Notes under the pieces: generated by a model | Told to the model about the DNA's origin: nothing | Database searches by the model: none | The model's input: only the letters and a program-made list of their open reading frames with translations | Made by a program: the position numbers and the translations under genes | Sequence record: NC_028894.1 | Length of the DNA stretch: 64,000 bases | Direction: 5' to 3' (one strand) | Source of the DNA: Escherichia phage vB_EcoM_VR20 | Part shown: positions 2,577 to 36,956 of the stretch, piece after piece | How positions within the stretch are numbered: the first letter of the stretch is position 1 | How the letters are laid out: every line of letters begins with the position of its first letter

Positions 2577-2871
2577 TTACGATTTCCCAAATTTGTTTGC
2601 GAGTAGAATCCCACATCAACTTAATCAGGTCTTCCGTAACGGGTTGGCGGTAAATCCCACGCAGTTTAACAAGAGCATATTTGTATGCTTCAAAATTGTT
2701 TTCCAGCACTGCGCCTTGAGCATGCTTATTCAGTCGTGCAATTTCACGAGCATTCTTTTTCAGAATCTTCGCTGCTTGACTGGTTGCTTCGAGTGCGTTC
2801 GCTTCTTCGAGACGTTCCTGTGCTTCTTCAATCTGCTTATCGGTCAGTTGAGAAATATCTGGAGCTTGCAT
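2560..2871 (-). CDS. Hypothetical helical protein
   Basis: 103 aa ORF, charged/helical composition. Confidence 0.4.
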   Translation of the reverse strand: MQAPDISQLTDKQIEEAQERLEEANALEATSQAAKILKKNAREIARLNKHAQGAVLENNFEAYKYALVKLRGIYRQPVTEDLIKLMWDSTRKQIWEIVNGISK

Positions 2872-2872
2872 A

Positions 2873-3124
2873 TTAATCCTTGGGAGTTAACTCAATTGTA
2901 AAATATAGATTAGCATTATCCACATGATAACGGTAATCAACGTTATTGTCCGGAGAAGTAAATTCCAGATTCCGGACGTTTAAAGGGTCGATATCAATTG
3001 GAAGACCTTTTATGTCTCGCAGATAAAGTTTAATGAAATATGGGAGAGCCGTAAAGTCTTCCTCGATTTTATCTAAAAAATCGGTAATATCAAATTGATG
3101 TTCCATATAAAAAATCCAAATCAC
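2873..3124 (-). CDS. Hypothetical protein
   Basis: 83 aa ORF immediately downstream of gene 55. Confidence 0.4.
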
Positions 3125-3647
3125 CCTCTTTATCTTTGGCGCTCTTATCAGACCCTGGCGCTTTAACTAAAGAGGATTCGTACTGTGTCATTTTGTCATA
3201 GATGTCCTGGATAAATGTTTCATCAGCCAGAGCCACCATATCGTCGTCACGTGAATCATATACGTTATGGACGAAGTAGCTATATTTCTTTGCCATTTCT
3301 TTACGTTCTTTTTTGATACGCTGAACGAAAGCATTGAAGCAAGCCATTGTTATGTAAGCATGTGGATTATCGTATTTTGTTTCGTCGAAGTTGTGAAGAC
3401 CTTTTATTGCGGCCTCAATTCCGTCTGCTATCATTTCTTGCTTCCAGGATTGGGTATATCCGGAGAAGTTGAAACGTTTGCTAAGACCTTCGGCTATAAG
3501 CATAATCGCCAGACCAATAACATCGTTCTGGCGAATAATTTTGTTCGGGTCGGTGTTCGCATTCAGCTTCTGTTTCCACTCCGAAATAGCTTTCAAAAGC
3601 TCTTTATTATTTACATAGTTATTCTTGGTTAATTTAATTTCGTTCAT
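3090..3647 (-). CDS. 55: Late-transcription sigma factor gp55
   Basis: 185 aa; YVNNKELL...[39 protein letters not shown] nearly identical to T4 gp55. Confidence 0.9.
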
Positions 3648-3695
3648 ATCGCCTCACTTAGTATATGAATATTATATCATCCTTTATACAAAGCA

Positions 3696-3962
3696 TTAGC
3701 GAAGTAAACAGTAAGCCTGGAAGACCTTCTCCATAATTGCCTTAAATTCATGGATGTCAATATAAGGGATAACCTCGGCATCACTAATGAATTCCATCAG
3801 ACGGTCATGCTCGTTGCGGTATTGTCCTTCATTCAACATACTGATATGGGACTCCCAAGAGCCATACCCTTCTGCGTGTGGGAAGAATGTTATTTTCATG
3901 AATTCATCCACCCAAAACGTTCCCAGGTCCTGGATGGATATCATTGTATGATTGATGTGCAT
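3696..3962 (-). CDS. Hypothetical protein (55.x)
   Basis: 88 aa ORF in tight same-strand array. Confidence 0.4.
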   Translation of the reverse strand: MHINHTMISIQDLGTFWVDEFMKITFFPHAEGYGSWESHISMLNEGQYRNEHDRLMEFISDAEVIPYIDIHEFKAIMEKVFQAYCLLR

Positions 3963-4228
3963 CAGTACACCAATTGGGCAGCTTCTAAAACATCATCAAG
4001 CTTATCAAACTGGTCAATATAATCAATCCCACCAACTTCATCTTTAGCATACAACCAATATTGGTGAAATTCATATTCAATAATAAAGTGGTCACCTTCA
4101 ATCTGGAGAACGCCAGCATTATTAAATTGAACTGCATAACCCGTAAAGCGAACATCATTCAGGAGTTCTTCTTTCATAGTAATCATTTCCAAGTTTTTAT
4201 CGTAATTAGAGAGTTTTATTTTAATCAT
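3962..4228 (-). CDS. Hypothetical protein (55.x)
   Basis: 88 aa ORF, abutting neighbours. Confidence 0.4.
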   Translation of the reverse strand: MIKIKLSNYDKNLEMITMKEELLNDVRFTGYAVQFNNAGVLQIEGDHFIIEYEFHQYWLYAKDEVGGIDYIDQFDKLDDVLEAAQLVY

Positions 4229-28309: not shown

Positions 28310-28896
28310 TTACGGCATTCCTCAATAAAAGAGTTCAATGTATTTTTCTTATTGATATCGTCATATAGCTTTTTAACTTTAGAAATACGAAAAGGTACTT
28401 CAATAGCCATAGTCCATAAAAATGATGCAATAAGTCCAATAGCAGCAGAAGAAACACACGCGCCCATTACAGCTACAGGTGCTTCATTTTTACCTGTCAA
28501 GAAAAACAACAGGATTGGTAAAAATAAGATTCCAGCCCACGCATAAAACCTGGAACAAATTAACTTATCAAATTCATCTTTCCAGGTACGAAATCCATAT
28601 TTCTTGCTATAAGAAATTAATGGGTCAGGTGTCTGTTCTTTGAGTGGTTCTGGTTGATGTCCATTAATGATGTATCCCATTTTATATTCCTTAATTAAAA
28701 GCTCTTTCACATGACGATTGCATCGCGACCAATCAACATTTTCCACCTTGATTCCTTCATCACCATCATCAAGGTTCGCCCAATATTTTTTGGTAATCAT
28801 AAATTCGTCTCTTGATACAATTATACCTGCATTTTCTGCCCGGCGGATGAAGTTTACATCAACACCCATGCACCCAGGTTCATACAGCATTACCAT
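28306..28896 (-). CDS. Membrane protein with C-terminal FIEECRK tail
   Basis: 196 aa; soluble N-domain, two hydrophobic segments, C-terminus ...LNSFIEECRK. Confidence 0.5.
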   Translation of the reverse strand: MVMLYEPGCMGVDVNFIRRAENAGIIVSRDEFMITKKYWANLDDGDEGIKVENVDWSRCNRHVKELLIKEYKMGYIINGHQPEPLKEQTPDPLISYSKKYGFRTWKDEFDKLICSRFYAWAGILFLPILLFFLTGKNEAPVAVMGACVSSAAIGLIASFLWTMAIEVPFRISKVKKLYDDINKKNTLNSFIEECRK

Positions 28897-29576
28897 CCCT
28901 CCATAGGGAATTCCAGATATACTTGAGCATTAACGCGGATTTCATTTGTAATCTTTTTAACACGGTCGGTATTACGAGACACACGACCAAACCAGCGCCA
29001 CCCGTTACTTACTGCACGAGAACCTGTATGCCATGTCTGCCAATCAAACTGGAGCAACGTGCGGTCAGGAGCATCCCACTTGGTTAATTCATTGGACTCA
29101 ATTTTTTCCAGAACTTCTTTATGCCACTGGCGATAGATAAGTTCACCTTCAGGAATCTGACTAAATTGGGCAGTTCCGGTTGCAAAATAAGTAGGACACA
29201 CATCAGCGTTAACAAGACCAAGAATATGTTCAGAATGGTAACGAGGATTATCATAATCAGGTTGCCCTGCAGTAATAAAGTGTTGACCAACCGGAATATC
29301 CGGACGCGGTACATCATCATGGTGATAACCTGGGATAGCAGGATACCAACCAGGCATTAACATATGTACACGAGAATCGAATACGACATTTTCATTAGTC
29401 CAATCAATCGGAAGATTGGTAATAAAACTACGAGTGATTGGGCCGCCTTTATCCCAAGCAAAACTCAAATCACAGTTAAAGAACATCGGTTCATTTTTGA
29501 TTTGATCGTTTTGAACATCGTGAGCAAAACCACTTACGGCACGAGCTCGGCTATTAAACACTTTAGAACTATTCAT
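28890..29576 (-). CDS. Hypothetical protein (possible enzyme, His/Asp-rich)
   Basis: 228 aa ORF; GYHHDD and YHSEH segments; no confident family. Confidence 0.45.
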   Translation of the reverse strand: MNSSKVFNSRARAVSGFAHDVQNDQIKNEPMFFNCDLSFAWDKGGPITRSFITNLPIDWTNENVVFDSRVHMLMPGWYPAIPGYHHDDVPRPDIPVGQHFITAGQPDYDNPRYHSEHILGLVNADVCPTYFATGTAQFSQIPEGELIYRQWHKEVLEKIESNELTKWDAPDRTLLQFDWQTWHTGSRAVSNGWRWFGRVSRNTDRVKKITNEIRVNAQVYLEFPMEGW

Positions 29577-29635: not shown

Positions 29636-30595
29636 TTATTTTGTGAAAGGGCGAATTAAATGTTGGTTAGCCTTGAAGCGTTTAACATAGTCTTCGCGAC
29701 CCAGGGTGTTGTACATATTAACCACTTCCTGGTAATGTTCCCAGGCATACTCACGGAACCATCCAGAAGTAATGGAGGTACAGACTTTTTCCAGTGCAAT
29801 ATGGAAGCTCACGGATGGAGAAATATTGAACTCATTAGGAACCTGCGAACGCTCCAGAGCGAGCACACATGCTTCTTCATAAACCCCTGCCAGTTTAATA
29901 ACATCAGGGAGTGCTTCAAATTTTTCACGTGAGGTCATGACTTCTGAATCATCCTTCATATAGAACTTATATGCAGGCTTATCAGCAAGCGCCACGGCCT
30001 CGTGGATGGAGTCATGGTCAAGGGTATAGATTGTATCATTAAAGAAAGTTTTCTTGCCCACGTCTAGTTTAGGGTGACTGTATGACAGTGTTTCTGCCTG
30101 ACGCTGCAGCATGATTTTCTGCAGCTCATCATTAAGAACAATACCCTTATTGCGAAGGTAATTAATATGACTCATGGTCTTCAGGAAGAATGGATTGTTC
30201 TTCAGGTAACGATGAGATAATTTAATTGCCAGACAAATATCAGGAGTCGCCCAGTAAAAACCTGTAAGACGGTCCTTTTTAATATGATTTTCAGCATATT
30301 TCAGGAGACGATAACTTGAGGTGAAATCTTCGTCTTGAAGCTCGCCAGTAATTTCTCGTACGTTGGTCAGGGCACGGACAATATAAGCTTCAAAATAGGT
30401 TTCTTTGCCATTGTACATACATTTAAAAGCTTGGACATCAGGGTTATCCACAGGAATATGAGCACCGAACATACGTGCTTTAAAGTGGTTCCATGAGCCT
30501 TGGTCGGCAATGAAATCCCAATCAGAGTTTTCAATTTTCTGACTTTCAATCAGACCAGCGTTATGTAATGCACGAGAACCAATAACTAACATCAT
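29636..30595 (-). CDS. Hypothetical protein
   Basis: 319 aa ORF preceded by promoter-like inverted repeat. Confidence 0.5.
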   Translation of the reverse strand: MMLVIGSRALHNAGLIESQKIENSDWDFIADQGSWNHFKARMFGAHIPVDNPDVQAFKCMYNGKETYFEAYIVRALTNVREITGELQDEDFTSSYRLLKYAENHIKKDRLTGFYWATPDICLAIKLSHRYLKNNPFFLKTMSHINYLRNKGIVLNDELQKIMLQRQAETLSYSHPKLDVGKKTFFNDTIYTLDHDSIHEAVALADKPAYKFYMKDDSEVMTSREKFEALPDVIKLAGVYEEACVLALERSQVPNEFNISPSVSFHIALEKVCTSITSGWFREYAWEHYQEVVNMYNTLGREDYVKRFKANQHLIRPFTK

Positions 30596-30609
30596 AATAT
30601 TTTCCTCAT

Positions 30610-30777
30610 TAGTAAAGACGAGTTACTTCATATTTTCCAAGTGCCGATTTTTTCGCTTCAATTCGTGAGGCAGCAAGATTGGCGGCCTCTAGTGAAGAAA
30701 ATTGAACCACTTGAGAAGTATTCTGTCTTACTCCACCTTGCGGGTGAGTGACAAAAACAATAAGAACATTATACATA
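30610..30777 (-). CDS. Hypothetical small protein (55 aa)
   Basis: ORF MYNVLIVFVTHPQGGVRQ... with conserved GAGGAAAATATT-ATG initiation region; below track cutoff. Confidence 0.3.
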
Positions 30778-30784
30778 ATATTTT

Positions 30785-30830
30785 CCTCATTAGTTGACGA
30801 GATAATGATACTACGTTTCTTTAGGCTTGT
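30785..30830 (-). promoter_or_regulatory. Class I early-promoter/leader cassette (variant)
   Basis: GTGTACA...TATCATTATCTCGTCAACTAATGAGGAAAATATT. Confidence 0.4.
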
Positions 30831-30879
30831 ACACTAAATTTCTGCACATAAGTCCTCCTATCACATCCTTGTGATAATT

Positions 30880-31113
30880 TTAGCAGCTACTCGGATACCA
30901 GATTTTACCATCGGCACGAGCAACGAAGGTACGACCAGCTTCTTCACCATAACAAGAGCTGTTCAACCAGTCTTCAAGACGGACTTCGCCGTCATAATCA
31001 TCAAGCTCAACACCAAAATCTTGAGCAGAAGCCATATCTTTTACTTTCTTATACAGTGCAGCCAGTTCAAGGGCGGCTTTTTCTAATTCAGCATGTTCAA
31101 CAGCAGTAGTCAT
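30880..31113 (-). CDS. Small protein, member 1 of C-terminal WxSSxxC paralog array
   Basis: 77 aa; N-terminal helix, internal WLNSSC and C-terminal ...GKIWYPSSC. Confidence 0.5.
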   Translation of the reverse strand: MTTAVEHAELEKAALELAALYKKVKDMASAQDFGVELDDYDGEVRLEDWLNSSCYGEEAGRTFVARADGKIWYPSSC

Positions 31114-31122
31114 TTTATCACC

Positions 31123-31350
31123 TTAGCAAGACATAGAGGAGTTGTACCAGAAACCTTTACCTTCTGGGATACCATAATCACCGTGAATCCAGTCATATTT
31201 TTTATATTCTGGGCAACCCGCGGGAATATATCGCTGAAGACTGTCAGCATATACATGAAAGTATTCACCAGTTTTATCGGCCAGCTGTTCACCTTCACAG
31301 ATTAGTGCACGGATTTGGTCTTCAATTTCTTTAACAGTTTTAGTAGTCAT
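31123..31350 (-). CDS. Small protein, member 2 of C-terminal WxSSxxC paralog array
   Basis: 75 aa; ends ...GKGFWYNSSMSC. Confidence 0.5.
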   Translation of the reverse strand: MTTKTVKEIEDQIRALICEGEQLADKTGEYFHVYADSLQRYIPAGCPEYKKYDWIHGDYGIPEGKGFWYNSSMSC

Positions 31351-31358
31351 TTATTTCC

Positions 31359-31571
31359 TTAGCATTCGTAAGAGGAGGACACCCAGGAGTTACCGCTAAT
31401 AGTAATACAACCATTATAAAGCGTGATATGTTGTTCCAGATTACGCTGACCATCGATATAGATATCAGCTTCTTCACGTTCTTCTTTACAAATCTGGATA
31501 ACATTTTCAATAGCTGCCGCGGCAGTACGGATTGCACAATCTAATTCACGAGACATAACATTCCTTAACAT
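31359..31571 (-). CDS. Small protein, member 3 of C-terminal WxSSxxC paralog array
   Basis: 70 aa; ends ...SGNSWVSSSYEC. Confidence 0.45.
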   Translation of the reverse strand: MLRNVMSRELDCAIRTAAAAIENVIQICKEEREEADIYIDGQRNLEQHITLYNGCITISGNSWVSSSYEC

Positions 31572-31846
31572 TCAGCAGAAGAGGACACCCAACCACCATT
31601 TTCCAGGTCAGTTGTATAGTCATGAGTATTAACAATAGCCCATTCAGGATGACCATGTTCTTCCCAATGAGCAAGGTCAGCTTTCAGGGCGCCAGGAGAA
31701 TAATAGTCACCGCCCATACCGCGAGCAGGGTATATATTAAAATGAGTCTCATATTTGTCTGCAATTTCCTCGGCACGACGAATAGCTTTATGGATGTCAT
31801 TTACTGCGTTAGCCAGTTCTTTATTTTTACGGTAATCATTCATCAT
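31565..31846 (-). CDS. Small protein, member 4 of C-terminal WxSSxxC paralog array
   Basis: 93 aa; EEIADKYETHFNIYP...GGWVSSSAEC. Confidence 0.5.
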   Translation of the reverse strand: MMNDYRKNKELANAVNDIHKAIRRAEEIADKYETHFNIYPARGMGGDYYSPGALKADLAHWEEHGHPEWAIVNTHDYTTDLENGGWVSSSAEC

Positions 31847-31855
31847 AGCGTTTCC

Positions 31856-32146
31856 TTAGCACATTGCCGAAGAGGAGACCCAAGCACCAACTGTAACGAC
31901 ACCGTTTTCAACTTCACCGCCGTTGTTTTCAATTTCATCTTTAAACCACTGGGAGCATTCATAACCGACAGGATAATATGTACGGCCCGAACCATAATCA
32001 CCGGTACCAAATTGGATACCATATTCATCTGCGATTTCTTCACAGTGTTTTTCAATTTCAGAGGTCTTATTTAGAAGAGAATAGATAGCTTTTTCTGCAG
32101 ATTTCTCATCATAATACTTGGGGATAGCAATTTCAATTTTATTCAT
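31856..32146 (-). CDS. Small protein, member 5 of C-terminal WxSSxxC paralog array
   Basis: 96 aa; EEIADEYGIQFGTGDYGSGRTYYP...GAWVSSSAMC. Confidence 0.5.
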   Translation of the reverse strand: MNKIEIAIPKYYDEKSAEKAIYSLLNKTSEIEKHCEEIADEYGIQFGTGDYGSGRTYYPVGYECSQWFKDEIENNGGEVENGVVTVGAWVSSSAMC

Positions 32147-32496
32147 GATTTACATTCCTTAATAAAGGTTTCAAGGTCATTACGTTTTGTTTTGTCTAGG
32201 AACTTATTATACTCAGCCATTGCTGAAGCATATCTCTTCCGACTAGGAGCATTCACGGCGTTTGTGTGACAGATATCATACACAACAGGTATAAAATAAG
32301 ACACAACAGCCGGAGCGATTATCATAAAGAAGCCCATCTCAATAGGCATCACTCCCTCGATTGCAGCCATAACCGTGGTCATTACCAGACCAACCAAACC
32401 ACCAAGCATGGCGGTGACAATCCCTAATAATAAATTGGCACCAATATCATATTCAGCCAATTGATAAACATGTGATGCAAGATTAGGCCGTTCCAT
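32143..32496 (-). CDS. Two-TM membrane protein with C-terminal FIKECKS tail
   Basis: Start at internal Met (MERPNLASHV); hydrophobic segments; C-terminus ...LETFIKECKS. Confidence 0.45.
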   Translation of the reverse strand: MERPNLASHVYQLAEYDIGANLLLGIVTAMLGGLVGLVMTTVMAAIEGVMPIEMGFFMIIAPAVVSYFIPVVYDICHTNAVNAPSRKRYASAMAEYNKFLDKTKRNDLETFIKECKS

Positions 32497-32842
32497 TACG
32501 AACCTCCTTAATAAATTCTTCGGCACATTTAATTTTGTGCTCTTCTTGCAGGGAAACACATTTTTGTTCCCACTCTTTAACTCGTCCCCGATAACCTTTA
32601 TTCATATGATTTTGATGCCACACATTTATCAATACCATACACAGGACTGTAATAAAAGGAGCTGCAATTACTAGCGTCCAGGCGACTCCAACACTAATGA
32701 TATTCATATCCCCACAAAGCACCATCATTATAACCCCAACGATGCACATGGACAGAGCTCCAAATGGAGGCATAAGGTCTTTATCAATCTTGTCTGCGTA
32801 CACAAATTTTTCTGGTTTACTTGGCAGATATAACGTTCGCAT
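32483..32842 (-). CDS. Two-TM membrane protein, paralog of 32143..32496
   Basis: Start at internal Met MRTLYLPSK with AAAGGGG SD; C-terminus ...EEFIKEVRNGTA. Confidence 0.45.
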   Translation of the reverse strand: MRTLYLPSKPEKFVYADKIDKDLMPPFGALSMCIVGVIMMVLCGDMNIISVGVAWTLVIAAPFITVLCMVLINVWHQNHMNKGYRGRVKEWEQKCVSLQEEHKIKCAEEFIKEVRNGTA

Positions 32843-36948: not shown

Positions 36949-36956
36949 TATTTATA
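36949..36956 (-). promoter_or_regulatory. T4-type late promoter TATAAATA
   Basis: Exact TATAAATA on minus strand upstream of 36368..36922. Confidence 0.5.

Follow-up and report, generated by a model that had tools for sequence, protein, structure and literature searches.

Five small Cys-tailed paralogs of Escherichia phage vB_EcoM_VR20 and a linked predicted nucleotidyltransferase point to an undescribed two-part phage system

Why does a T-even-like phage carry, side by side, five genes for small proteins that all end in a Cys? The question is raised by a stretch of 64,000 nucleotides (nt) of Escherichia phage vB_EcoM_VR20 (NC_028894.1), referred to here as the window, in which an initial annotation made from the letters alone had described a tandem array at positions 30880-32146. 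The window is that of a Gaprivervirus, a T-even-like genus of the Straboviridae (VR26/VR7-like), and its positions 30600-32600 are 97% identical to Escherichia phage VR26 and 96% identical to VR7 and SP18. We found that the five genes are better described as part of a conserved two-component phage module, whose other component is a gene for a protein of 319 amino acids (aa) that is predicted to be a nucleotidyltransferase (NTase). The pairing of array and NTase points to a two-part phage system that has not been described so far.

All five adjacent open reading frames (ORFs) are where the annotation had placed them, on the minus strand, and their translations confirm the Cys motif at every C terminus. 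Counted from the lowest coordinate, member 1 (30880-31113, 77 aa) ends in WYPSSC, member 2 (31123-31350, 75 aa) in GFWYNSSMSC, member 3 (31359-31571, 70 aa) in NSWVSSSYEC, member 4 (31565-31846, 93 aa) in GGWVSSSAEC, and member 5 (31856-32146, 96 aa) in GAWVSSSAMC. Member 1 consists of two motif units (EDWLNSSC-YGEEAGRTFVARADGKI-WYPSSC), the first of which holds the internal WLNSSC already noted. This C-terminal pattern is found in exactly 5 of the 452 ORFs of at least 40 aa in the window, whereas 2000 shuffles of the residues gave 0.09 such ORFs on average and never more than 2. As had been proposed, the five genes are paralogs of one family, with pairwise identities of 21-33%; members 1, 2, 4, and 5 match phrog_899 (E values of 8.6e-10, 5e-15, 2.3e-20, and 3.7e-23, respectively), while member 3 matches phrog_4882 (E 4e-36) and the hidden Markov model (HMM) that we built for the small family (E 7e-06). 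Member 3 probably starts at its second ATG (31359-31556, 65 aa), because a product of 65 aa is the one annotated in VR7, SP18, and RB69 (RB69ORF136c).

The genes of the array are spaced by 8-9 nt, and the TAA of each leads straight into GGA from the ribosome-binding site of its successor; the ATG of member 5 overlaps the stop codon of the upstream e.3-like gene as ATGA; to judge from this arrangement, the five look like one translationally coupled operon. No copy of the late promoter TATAAATA was found near the array, the nearest upstream one on the coding strand being at position 36949. In comparisons with six related phages, the ratio of nonsynonymous to synonymous substitutions (dN/dS) was 0.07-0.16 for member 1, 0.16-0.32 for member 2, 0.20-0.39 for member 4, and 0.09-0.24 for member 5, and lay within 0.07-0.39 for all five genes, which are under purifying selection. 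An antisense ORF of 150 aa (31622-32074, plus strand) overlaps members 4 and 5 and looks spurious, because the frames under purifying selection are those of the minus strand.

The family alignment has a consensus of four parts, namely, an N-terminal helix with the end A-E-x-I-A-D-x-x-G-x-x-F, a Gly/Tyr loop ((A)YGMGGTYYP or GDYGSGRTYYPxG), a variable acidic insert, and the tail G-x-W-[VILY]-[SNPA]-S-S-x-x-C, in which the Trp and one Ser are invariant. Member 5 shows this architecture in full (a long N-terminal helix ending in EEIADEYGIQF, then GDYGSGRTYYPVG, then the tail), and in member 4, which is matched by tblastn in 280 phage records, the helix ends in EEIADKYETHF and is followed by ARGMGGDYYSPG. 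The helix and the Tyr/Gly-rich middle had been ascribed to all five proteins; they are clear in members 4, 5, and 2 but largely lost in member 1 and in member 3, which represents a diverged subfamily without the YGMGG loop. A profile search of 1.84 billion cluster representatives gave 53 matches, of which about 50 are genuine, and these distant representatives (70-119 aa) align with the family through the last residue. The smallest members, of 60 aa, are found in T4-like phages of Acinetobacter. Among the 271 distinct members that we gathered from loci, the terminal residue is exactly Cys in 256, with one or two extra residues in 7 others; the tail reads W-x-S-S-S-x-x-C in 188 (Trp-to-Cys spacing of 6) and W-x-x-S-S-C in 59 (spacing of 4). 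Two motif units, as in member 1, are present in 35 of the 271, a double-motif subfamily that is kept in other phages. The proteins are strongly acidic (median isoelectric point [pI] of 4.4, net charge of -8). The AlphaFold2 model of member 5 consists of a long helix and a small sheet, with a predicted local distance difference test (pLDDT) score of 86; the tail, after the strand that holds the Trp, is modeled with less confidence (block mean of 63) and is predicted to be exposed and flexible.

A motif so close to the gene end might be a feature of the DNA, with the ORFs and their motif reflecting a repeated nucleotide element such as a ribosome-binding region or a recombination site. It is true that, in this group of phages, the motif is followed at once by a repeated TAAGGA junction made of the stop codon and the ribosome-binding site of the next gene. 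An element of this kind, which the initial annotation had itself named in advance as the explanation that would overturn its proposal, fails to account for the tail. Among 152 distinct 3' termini of genes from many phages, both codon classes encode the invariant Ser (TCN in 122, AGY in 30) and the next Ser (TCN in 104, AGY in 37), Cys is encoded by TGC in 104 and TGT in 48, each of the three stop codons is found, and what follows downstream is variable. What is conserved in the tail is its amino acids rather than its nucleotides, and the low dN/dS values and the matches of the distant representatives up to the last residue refute the nucleotide element as well, so that this explanation can practically be dismissed.

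The annotation had not recognized the family from T4, and it is indeed absent there; it is, however, present in databases, where both phrog_899 and phrog_4882 are listed in PHROGs with function unknown. Searches of Pfam, NCBIfam, and PADLOC with the small proteins gave no match, the only matches in a profile search of the PDB were unspecific ones between the N-terminal helix and designed helical proteins, and word-indexed searches for homologs retrieved unnamed proteins only, with no domain fusions. The small proteins were also compared with ubiquitin-like and sulfur carriers (ThiS, MoaD), and neither the beta-grasp fold nor the C-terminal Gly-Gly was found, the tail ending in Cys. GenBank lists all of the genes as hypothetical, except where automated annotation has plainly misnamed them (tail completion protein, major capsid protein, CAZy GH13 protein, sulfurtransferase, and prohead assembly scaffold protein).

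The strongest indication of what the array belongs to came from its neighborhood. The full family alignment has no stretch conserved enough for a locus search, and loci were taken from viral contigs with an alignment of the YGMGG-type subset. These loci, from very different phages, typically contain 2-5 paralogs in tandem, and clustering of the same-strand neighbors revealed a partner family of about 310 aa within 5 kb in 40 of 41 loci; the one locus without it is on a contig of 3.6 kb that breaks off too soon. This linkage is not general synteny, because the next most shared neighbor family occurs in only 13 loci. In the reverse test, 80 loci were gathered through the 319-aa protein; in 70 of them, the HMM of the small family matched 1-6 copies just upstream and in the same orientation, and 5-6 more had motif-bearing ORFs, including long forms of 155-173 aa that end in W-D-S-S-[ST]-C. 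One contig (L111) ends too close to the gene to be judged, and the array is upstream of the enzyme gene in about 75 of the 79 remaining loci. The linkage extends over contigs of 8-371 kb and enzyme identities down to about 40%, and in most other phages the last small gene abuts the enzyme gene. Arrays of 1-6 copies in unrelated phages also show that the tandem diversification noted earlier is typical of the family. The linkage turns five hypothetical proteins into a proposal of an enzyme with its clients or an enzyme with its regulators.

In the window, the partner gene is at 29636-30595 on the minus strand. Between it and the array, in this group of phages, there is an ORF of 55 aa (30609-30776, minus strand; phrog_20278), which is unrelated to the small family and probably does not belong to the system, as most other phages have the module without it. 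The predicted RNA fold of the 103-nt gap between member 1 and this ORF is not significant (z of -1.1).

The partner protein contains two Pfam domains, DUF7277 (residues 2-101) and DUF7275 (residues 120-305), and belongs to phrog_2141, listed in PHROGs with function unknown; none of its more than 2,000 relatives has a functional name. Searches of the PDB with phmmer and with a profile gave no NTase match, and no relevant publication was found in the literature on DUF7275, DUF7277, phrog_899, the RB69 ORFs, or the motif peptides. The nearest structural neighbors of its model are the MenT1 toxin (10.2), TglT/MenT3 (8.7), ANT(2'') (8.6), and MenT4 (7.9), followed by other NTases, including LnuA, at 7.3-7.6. 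The fold and the sequence hallmarks of the Pol-beta superfamily are present, namely, the alpha/beta NTase core, hG[GS], [DE]x[DE] on the next strand, and a third carboxylate. In an alignment of 29 diverse members, G6-S7, D25-x-D27, and E69 are invariant, and in the model these catalytic residues fall on helix 6-12, strand 26-31, and strand 64-73. Based on this model, the partner is predicted to be an NTase of the Pol-beta fold with intact catalytic motifs. The helical C-terminal domain is very conserved, being 50-60% identical where the N-terminal domain can no longer be aligned; K125, H128, R129, K139, T140, R165, Y172, H174, D193-H194-D195, and H198 are invariant, together with C243 and C272 among the polar residues of DUF7275 and the segments GVYEExCVLALER and KVCTSITSGWFR. 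An HD-domain phosphohydrolase, prompted by the invariant H…DHD…H, was considered for DUF7275 and rejected, with no profile match and no structural support. The enzyme is not basic (median pI of 6.0), which speaks weakly against a nucleic acid as substrate.

What would such an enzyme do with the small proteins? In the reading that we favor, tentatively and with somewhat less than an even chance of its being right, the five genes and the 319-aa gene form one module in which the NTase modifies the tail of the small proteins, most likely on a serine. The conserved C-terminal domain of the enzyme would dock the flexible, Trp-anchored tail (W-x-x-S-S, 0-3 residues, and the terminal Cys), and the NTase center would transfer a nucleotidyl (or phosphoryl) group from a nucleoside triphosphate to the hydroxyl of the invariant serine, with the terminal Cys and the chain end serving as the recognition handle. 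Early in infection, the diverged acidic bodies of the paralogs could deliver the tail so modified to a variety of targets, probably those of the host. Pol-beta NTases transfer nucleoside monophosphates to hydroxyl groups, and those that modify hydroxyls of proteins include GlnD, GlnE, MntA, and CitX/MdcG. Because Pol-beta NTases act on hydroxyls and the closest structural relatives of the phage enzyme can phosphorylate Ser or Thr, the invariant Ser would be the most plausible acceptor. Enzymes of the MenT family are able to phosphorylate themselves on an active-site Ser or Thr (PMC11375011).

The conservation of the two components matches, the tail being the only part universally kept in the small proteins and the C-terminal domain being kept likewise in the enzyme; one enzyme with many diverged clients would resemble the pattern of a modifying enzyme with its substrates. 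The shared tail had been interpreted as a site of modification, recognition, or metal binding. The linkage to the putative NTase gives indirect support to the first two, whereas a single protein is unlikely to bind metal, the terminal Cys being the sole Cys in most members (29 of 53). The view of the small genes as host-interaction genes is plausible, and the location of the module, variable with respect to T4 and presumably early, fits host takeover or anti-defense. A more specific form of the proposal, a dedicated system of large virulent phages in which a private NTase covalently marks the Ser-Ser…Cys-COOH tail of diversifying acidic effectors, seems to us possible but doubtful; conceivable marks are a nucleotide, a short oligonucleotide primed on the protein, and the product of a dehydration and crosslink. 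Modification of the tail, if it takes place, would amount to phage posttranslational chemistry of a new type, possibly with a new class of host-directed effectors, and would add an enzyme-plus-clients system of a new kind to the conflict between phage and host.

Several points weigh against modification of the tail. A modified Ser leaves the required Cys at the chain end unexplained, and the spacing between the Ser pair and the Cys varies (0, 2, or 3 residues). Four of the enzyme-chosen loci (L066, L087, L088, and L099) clearly have no small gene, and the enzyme may have a substrate of its own. Likewise, the homologs of about 255 aa in Gordonia phage JonJames (locus at 2818-3983) and Streptomyces phage Annadreamy (locus at 2878-3968) have no Cys-tailed gene upstream. 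Both of the model-based inferences rest on predicted structures, and the order of the genes, small ones first, together with the likeness to MenT1 and MenA1 would fit a regulatory role for the small proteins equally well.

Such a regulatory role would make the module similar to MenA1-MenT1, with the enzyme acting on tRNA 3' ends or on nucleotides and the small proteins being inhibitors, timers, or specificity adaptors whose tail would sit in the active site as a pseudosubstrate. The top structural neighbors of the enzyme are indeed tRNA-modifying toxins (MenT1, MenT3, and MenT4). MenT1 is controlled by a short protein encoded upstream, the N-terminal helix of which acts on the active site (PMC10435456, PMC11375011); the phage small proteins are likewise encoded upstream, start with a long helix, and appear to be translationally coupled. 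That a few phages, and the actinophages, have the enzyme but not the small family also agrees with an independent activity of the enzyme. Of 60 diverse loci, 12 have tRNA genes within 6-8 kb of the module, and the Gordonia phage homolog has them beside it; this may be a weak sign of a link to tRNA biology or reflect a mere shared accessory region. However, up to six diverged paralogs per enzyme would be unusual for an antitoxin, the enzyme is not basic, and the small proteins, in arrays of 1-6 with a conserved Cys-ended tail, are unrelated to MenA or AbiEi and have no similarity to known antitoxins. The DUF1814 domain of MenAT and AbiE was not matched in a Pfam scan even at E values up to 10, which returned only DUF7275 and DUF7277, and no sequence match to these systems was found in the PDB. 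In MenT enzymes, the auto-phosphorylated residue precedes the first catalytic Asp by two positions (T39 in MenT1, S78 in MenT3, and S67 in MenT4); the corresponding residue is N23 here and varies across the alignment (N, P, L, D, V, and others), with no conserved Ser or Thr. Finally, MenAT and AbiE reside in bacterial chromosomes or plasmids, whereas the module is found in virulent phages, for which the logic of addiction has no obvious use. We consider regulation of this type somewhat unlikely in itself and nearly as likely as modification of the tail; if it were the case, virulent phages would be using toxin-type tRNA or nucleotide enzymes under their own control.

A looser association is also conceivable, in which the small proteins are independent anti-defense or takeover proteins, for example, acidic decoys or sponges for immune nucleotides, and the NTase of the same accessory island works separately, for example, making competitor nucleotides. 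The strong acidity of the small proteins, their conserved aromatic and Gly-rich loops, their tandem diversification, and their place in the early, T4-variable region between e.2 and e.3 are all in line with this. In addition, another clade of phage NTases (Av05, BCP1) has been reported to make competitor cyclic dinucleotides among anti-defense genes (10.1101/2022.06.09.495361), and these MNT-like enzymes resemble the window enzyme in being Pol-beta NTases with an SDWD-type motif and an accessory region. They are nevertheless a different family. Av05_0062 carries the motif GS-x-AYGT-x4-SDxD, and no Cys-tailed small proteins were reported with this clade (10.1101/2022.06.09.495361); the enzyme of the window reads GSRALHNAGLIESQKIENSDWD, with a longer spacer than that of GS-x-AY[GAN]T-x4-SDxD (10 residues from GS to SDxD in the published enzymes versus 17), and the published ones have no NP-x-h-h-[DE] site. 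An identity with them was rejected on this spacing and on a BLASTP comparison with Av05_0062 (E 0.28). The strict reciprocal adjacency of array and enzyme, in phages that have no other neighbors in common, is far tighter than coresidence in an island, and independent action would leave the universal tail without a reason. We regard it as improbable.

The Cys at the chain end, which modification of a Ser leaves aside, would have a role if the Ser…Cys-COOH tail were converted as in ribosomally synthesized and posttranslationally modified peptides (RiPPs), e.g., by activation and elimination of the Ser and addition of the Cys to give a ring of the lanthionine or aminovinylcysteine (AviCys) type; alternatively, the tail might be the scaffold arm for the synthesis of a small molecule, with DUF7275 supplying a second activity. 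Known peptides with AviCys or lanthionine rings form them from an S-x-x-C at the end of the chain, and the phage tail has a Ser 3-5 residues before the terminal Cys, a resemblance of motif only. Several diverged small genes directly upstream of one enzyme are the classic layout of RiPP arrays (ProcA/ProcM, epidermin with EpiD), the motif is repeated within the protein in the double-motif subfamily, and DUF7275 has many invariant polar residues (H128, H174, D193, H194, D195, H198, C243, and C272). On the other hand, the neighbors in the loci include no conserved dehydratase, cyclase, LanD-type decarboxylase, radical S-adenosylmethionine enzyme, protease, or other known RiPP enzyme family by Pfam and PHROG. 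The products, of 60-120 aa, are predicted to fold, and, contrary to the situation in most RiPPs, the putative core is the constant part and the remainder the variable one. To our knowledge, Pol-beta NTases do not drive chemistry of this kind. A RiPP-like or carrier function is, in our opinion, very improbable.

Modification of the tail, our favored reading, has parallels among the systems that pair an NTase-fold enzyme with a protein substrate, such as MntA-HepT (HEPN/MNT), GlnD-PII, GlnE-glutamine synthetase, and CitX/MdcG. The substrate of CitX/MdcG is an acidic protein of about 100 aa that is modified on Ser. In MntA, GlnD, GlnE, and CitX/MdcG, as far as we know, the acceptor is an internal Tyr or Ser and not a C-terminal tail, and there are no arrays of substrates. 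No sequence relationship of these enzymes to the phage enzyme was detected. MntA is reported to add one to three AMP units to the product of the adjacent partner gene (PMC7641770). The module thus shares its fold or architecture with MenAT/AbiE, HEPN-MNT, GlnD-PII, and CitX, and only its layout with RiPP clusters; it is set apart from all of them by sequence membership, the Cys-ended tail, the partner arrays, and its confinement to virulent phages.

Relative to T4, where e.2 and e.3 abut, the module sits between these two genes. The enzyme family is present in 730 of 50,697 phage records and makes up more than 2,000 protein clusters, with hosts that include Escherichia, Acinetobacter, Aeromonas, Pseudomonas, Vibrio, and Klebsiella and more distant homologs in Gordonia and Streptomyces phages, and the small family is found in many large phages of Gram-negative hosts. 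A host origin of the module was rejected; there was no match in 5,426 complete Escherichia coli genomes, and the module is almost absent from plasmids (3 weak matches only). The module is common and is also found in close relatives of model phages, including RB69, which has it as ORF139c/138c, 137c, 136c, 135c, and then ORF134c; genetic testing is therefore feasible straight away.

Some of these genomes show peculiarities of their own. In RB69 (NC_004928, locus at 3179-3485), a frameshift within a run of A divides the ortholog of member 5 into RB69ORF139c (71 aa) and ORF138c (33 aa, ending in AWVSSPALC); either this ortholog is a pseudogene or the split stems from a sequencing error. JonJames and Annadreamy have a homologous ORF of 112-127 aa that overlaps the stop codon of the enzyme gene; the Gordonia phage homolog adjoins a tRNA cluster, and the other has an RNA ligase about 1 kb away. 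In the window, the enzyme gene is followed directly by a gene for a 228-aa protein (28890-29576, minus strand; phrog_1843, RB69ORF132c-like, with no Pfam match), which belongs to the same insertion relative to T4 and is common to T-even-like loci only. SP18 has three extra small genes beside the array (3188-4040), and a further locus (L046) does not have member 3, so that the number of copies differs among close relatives.

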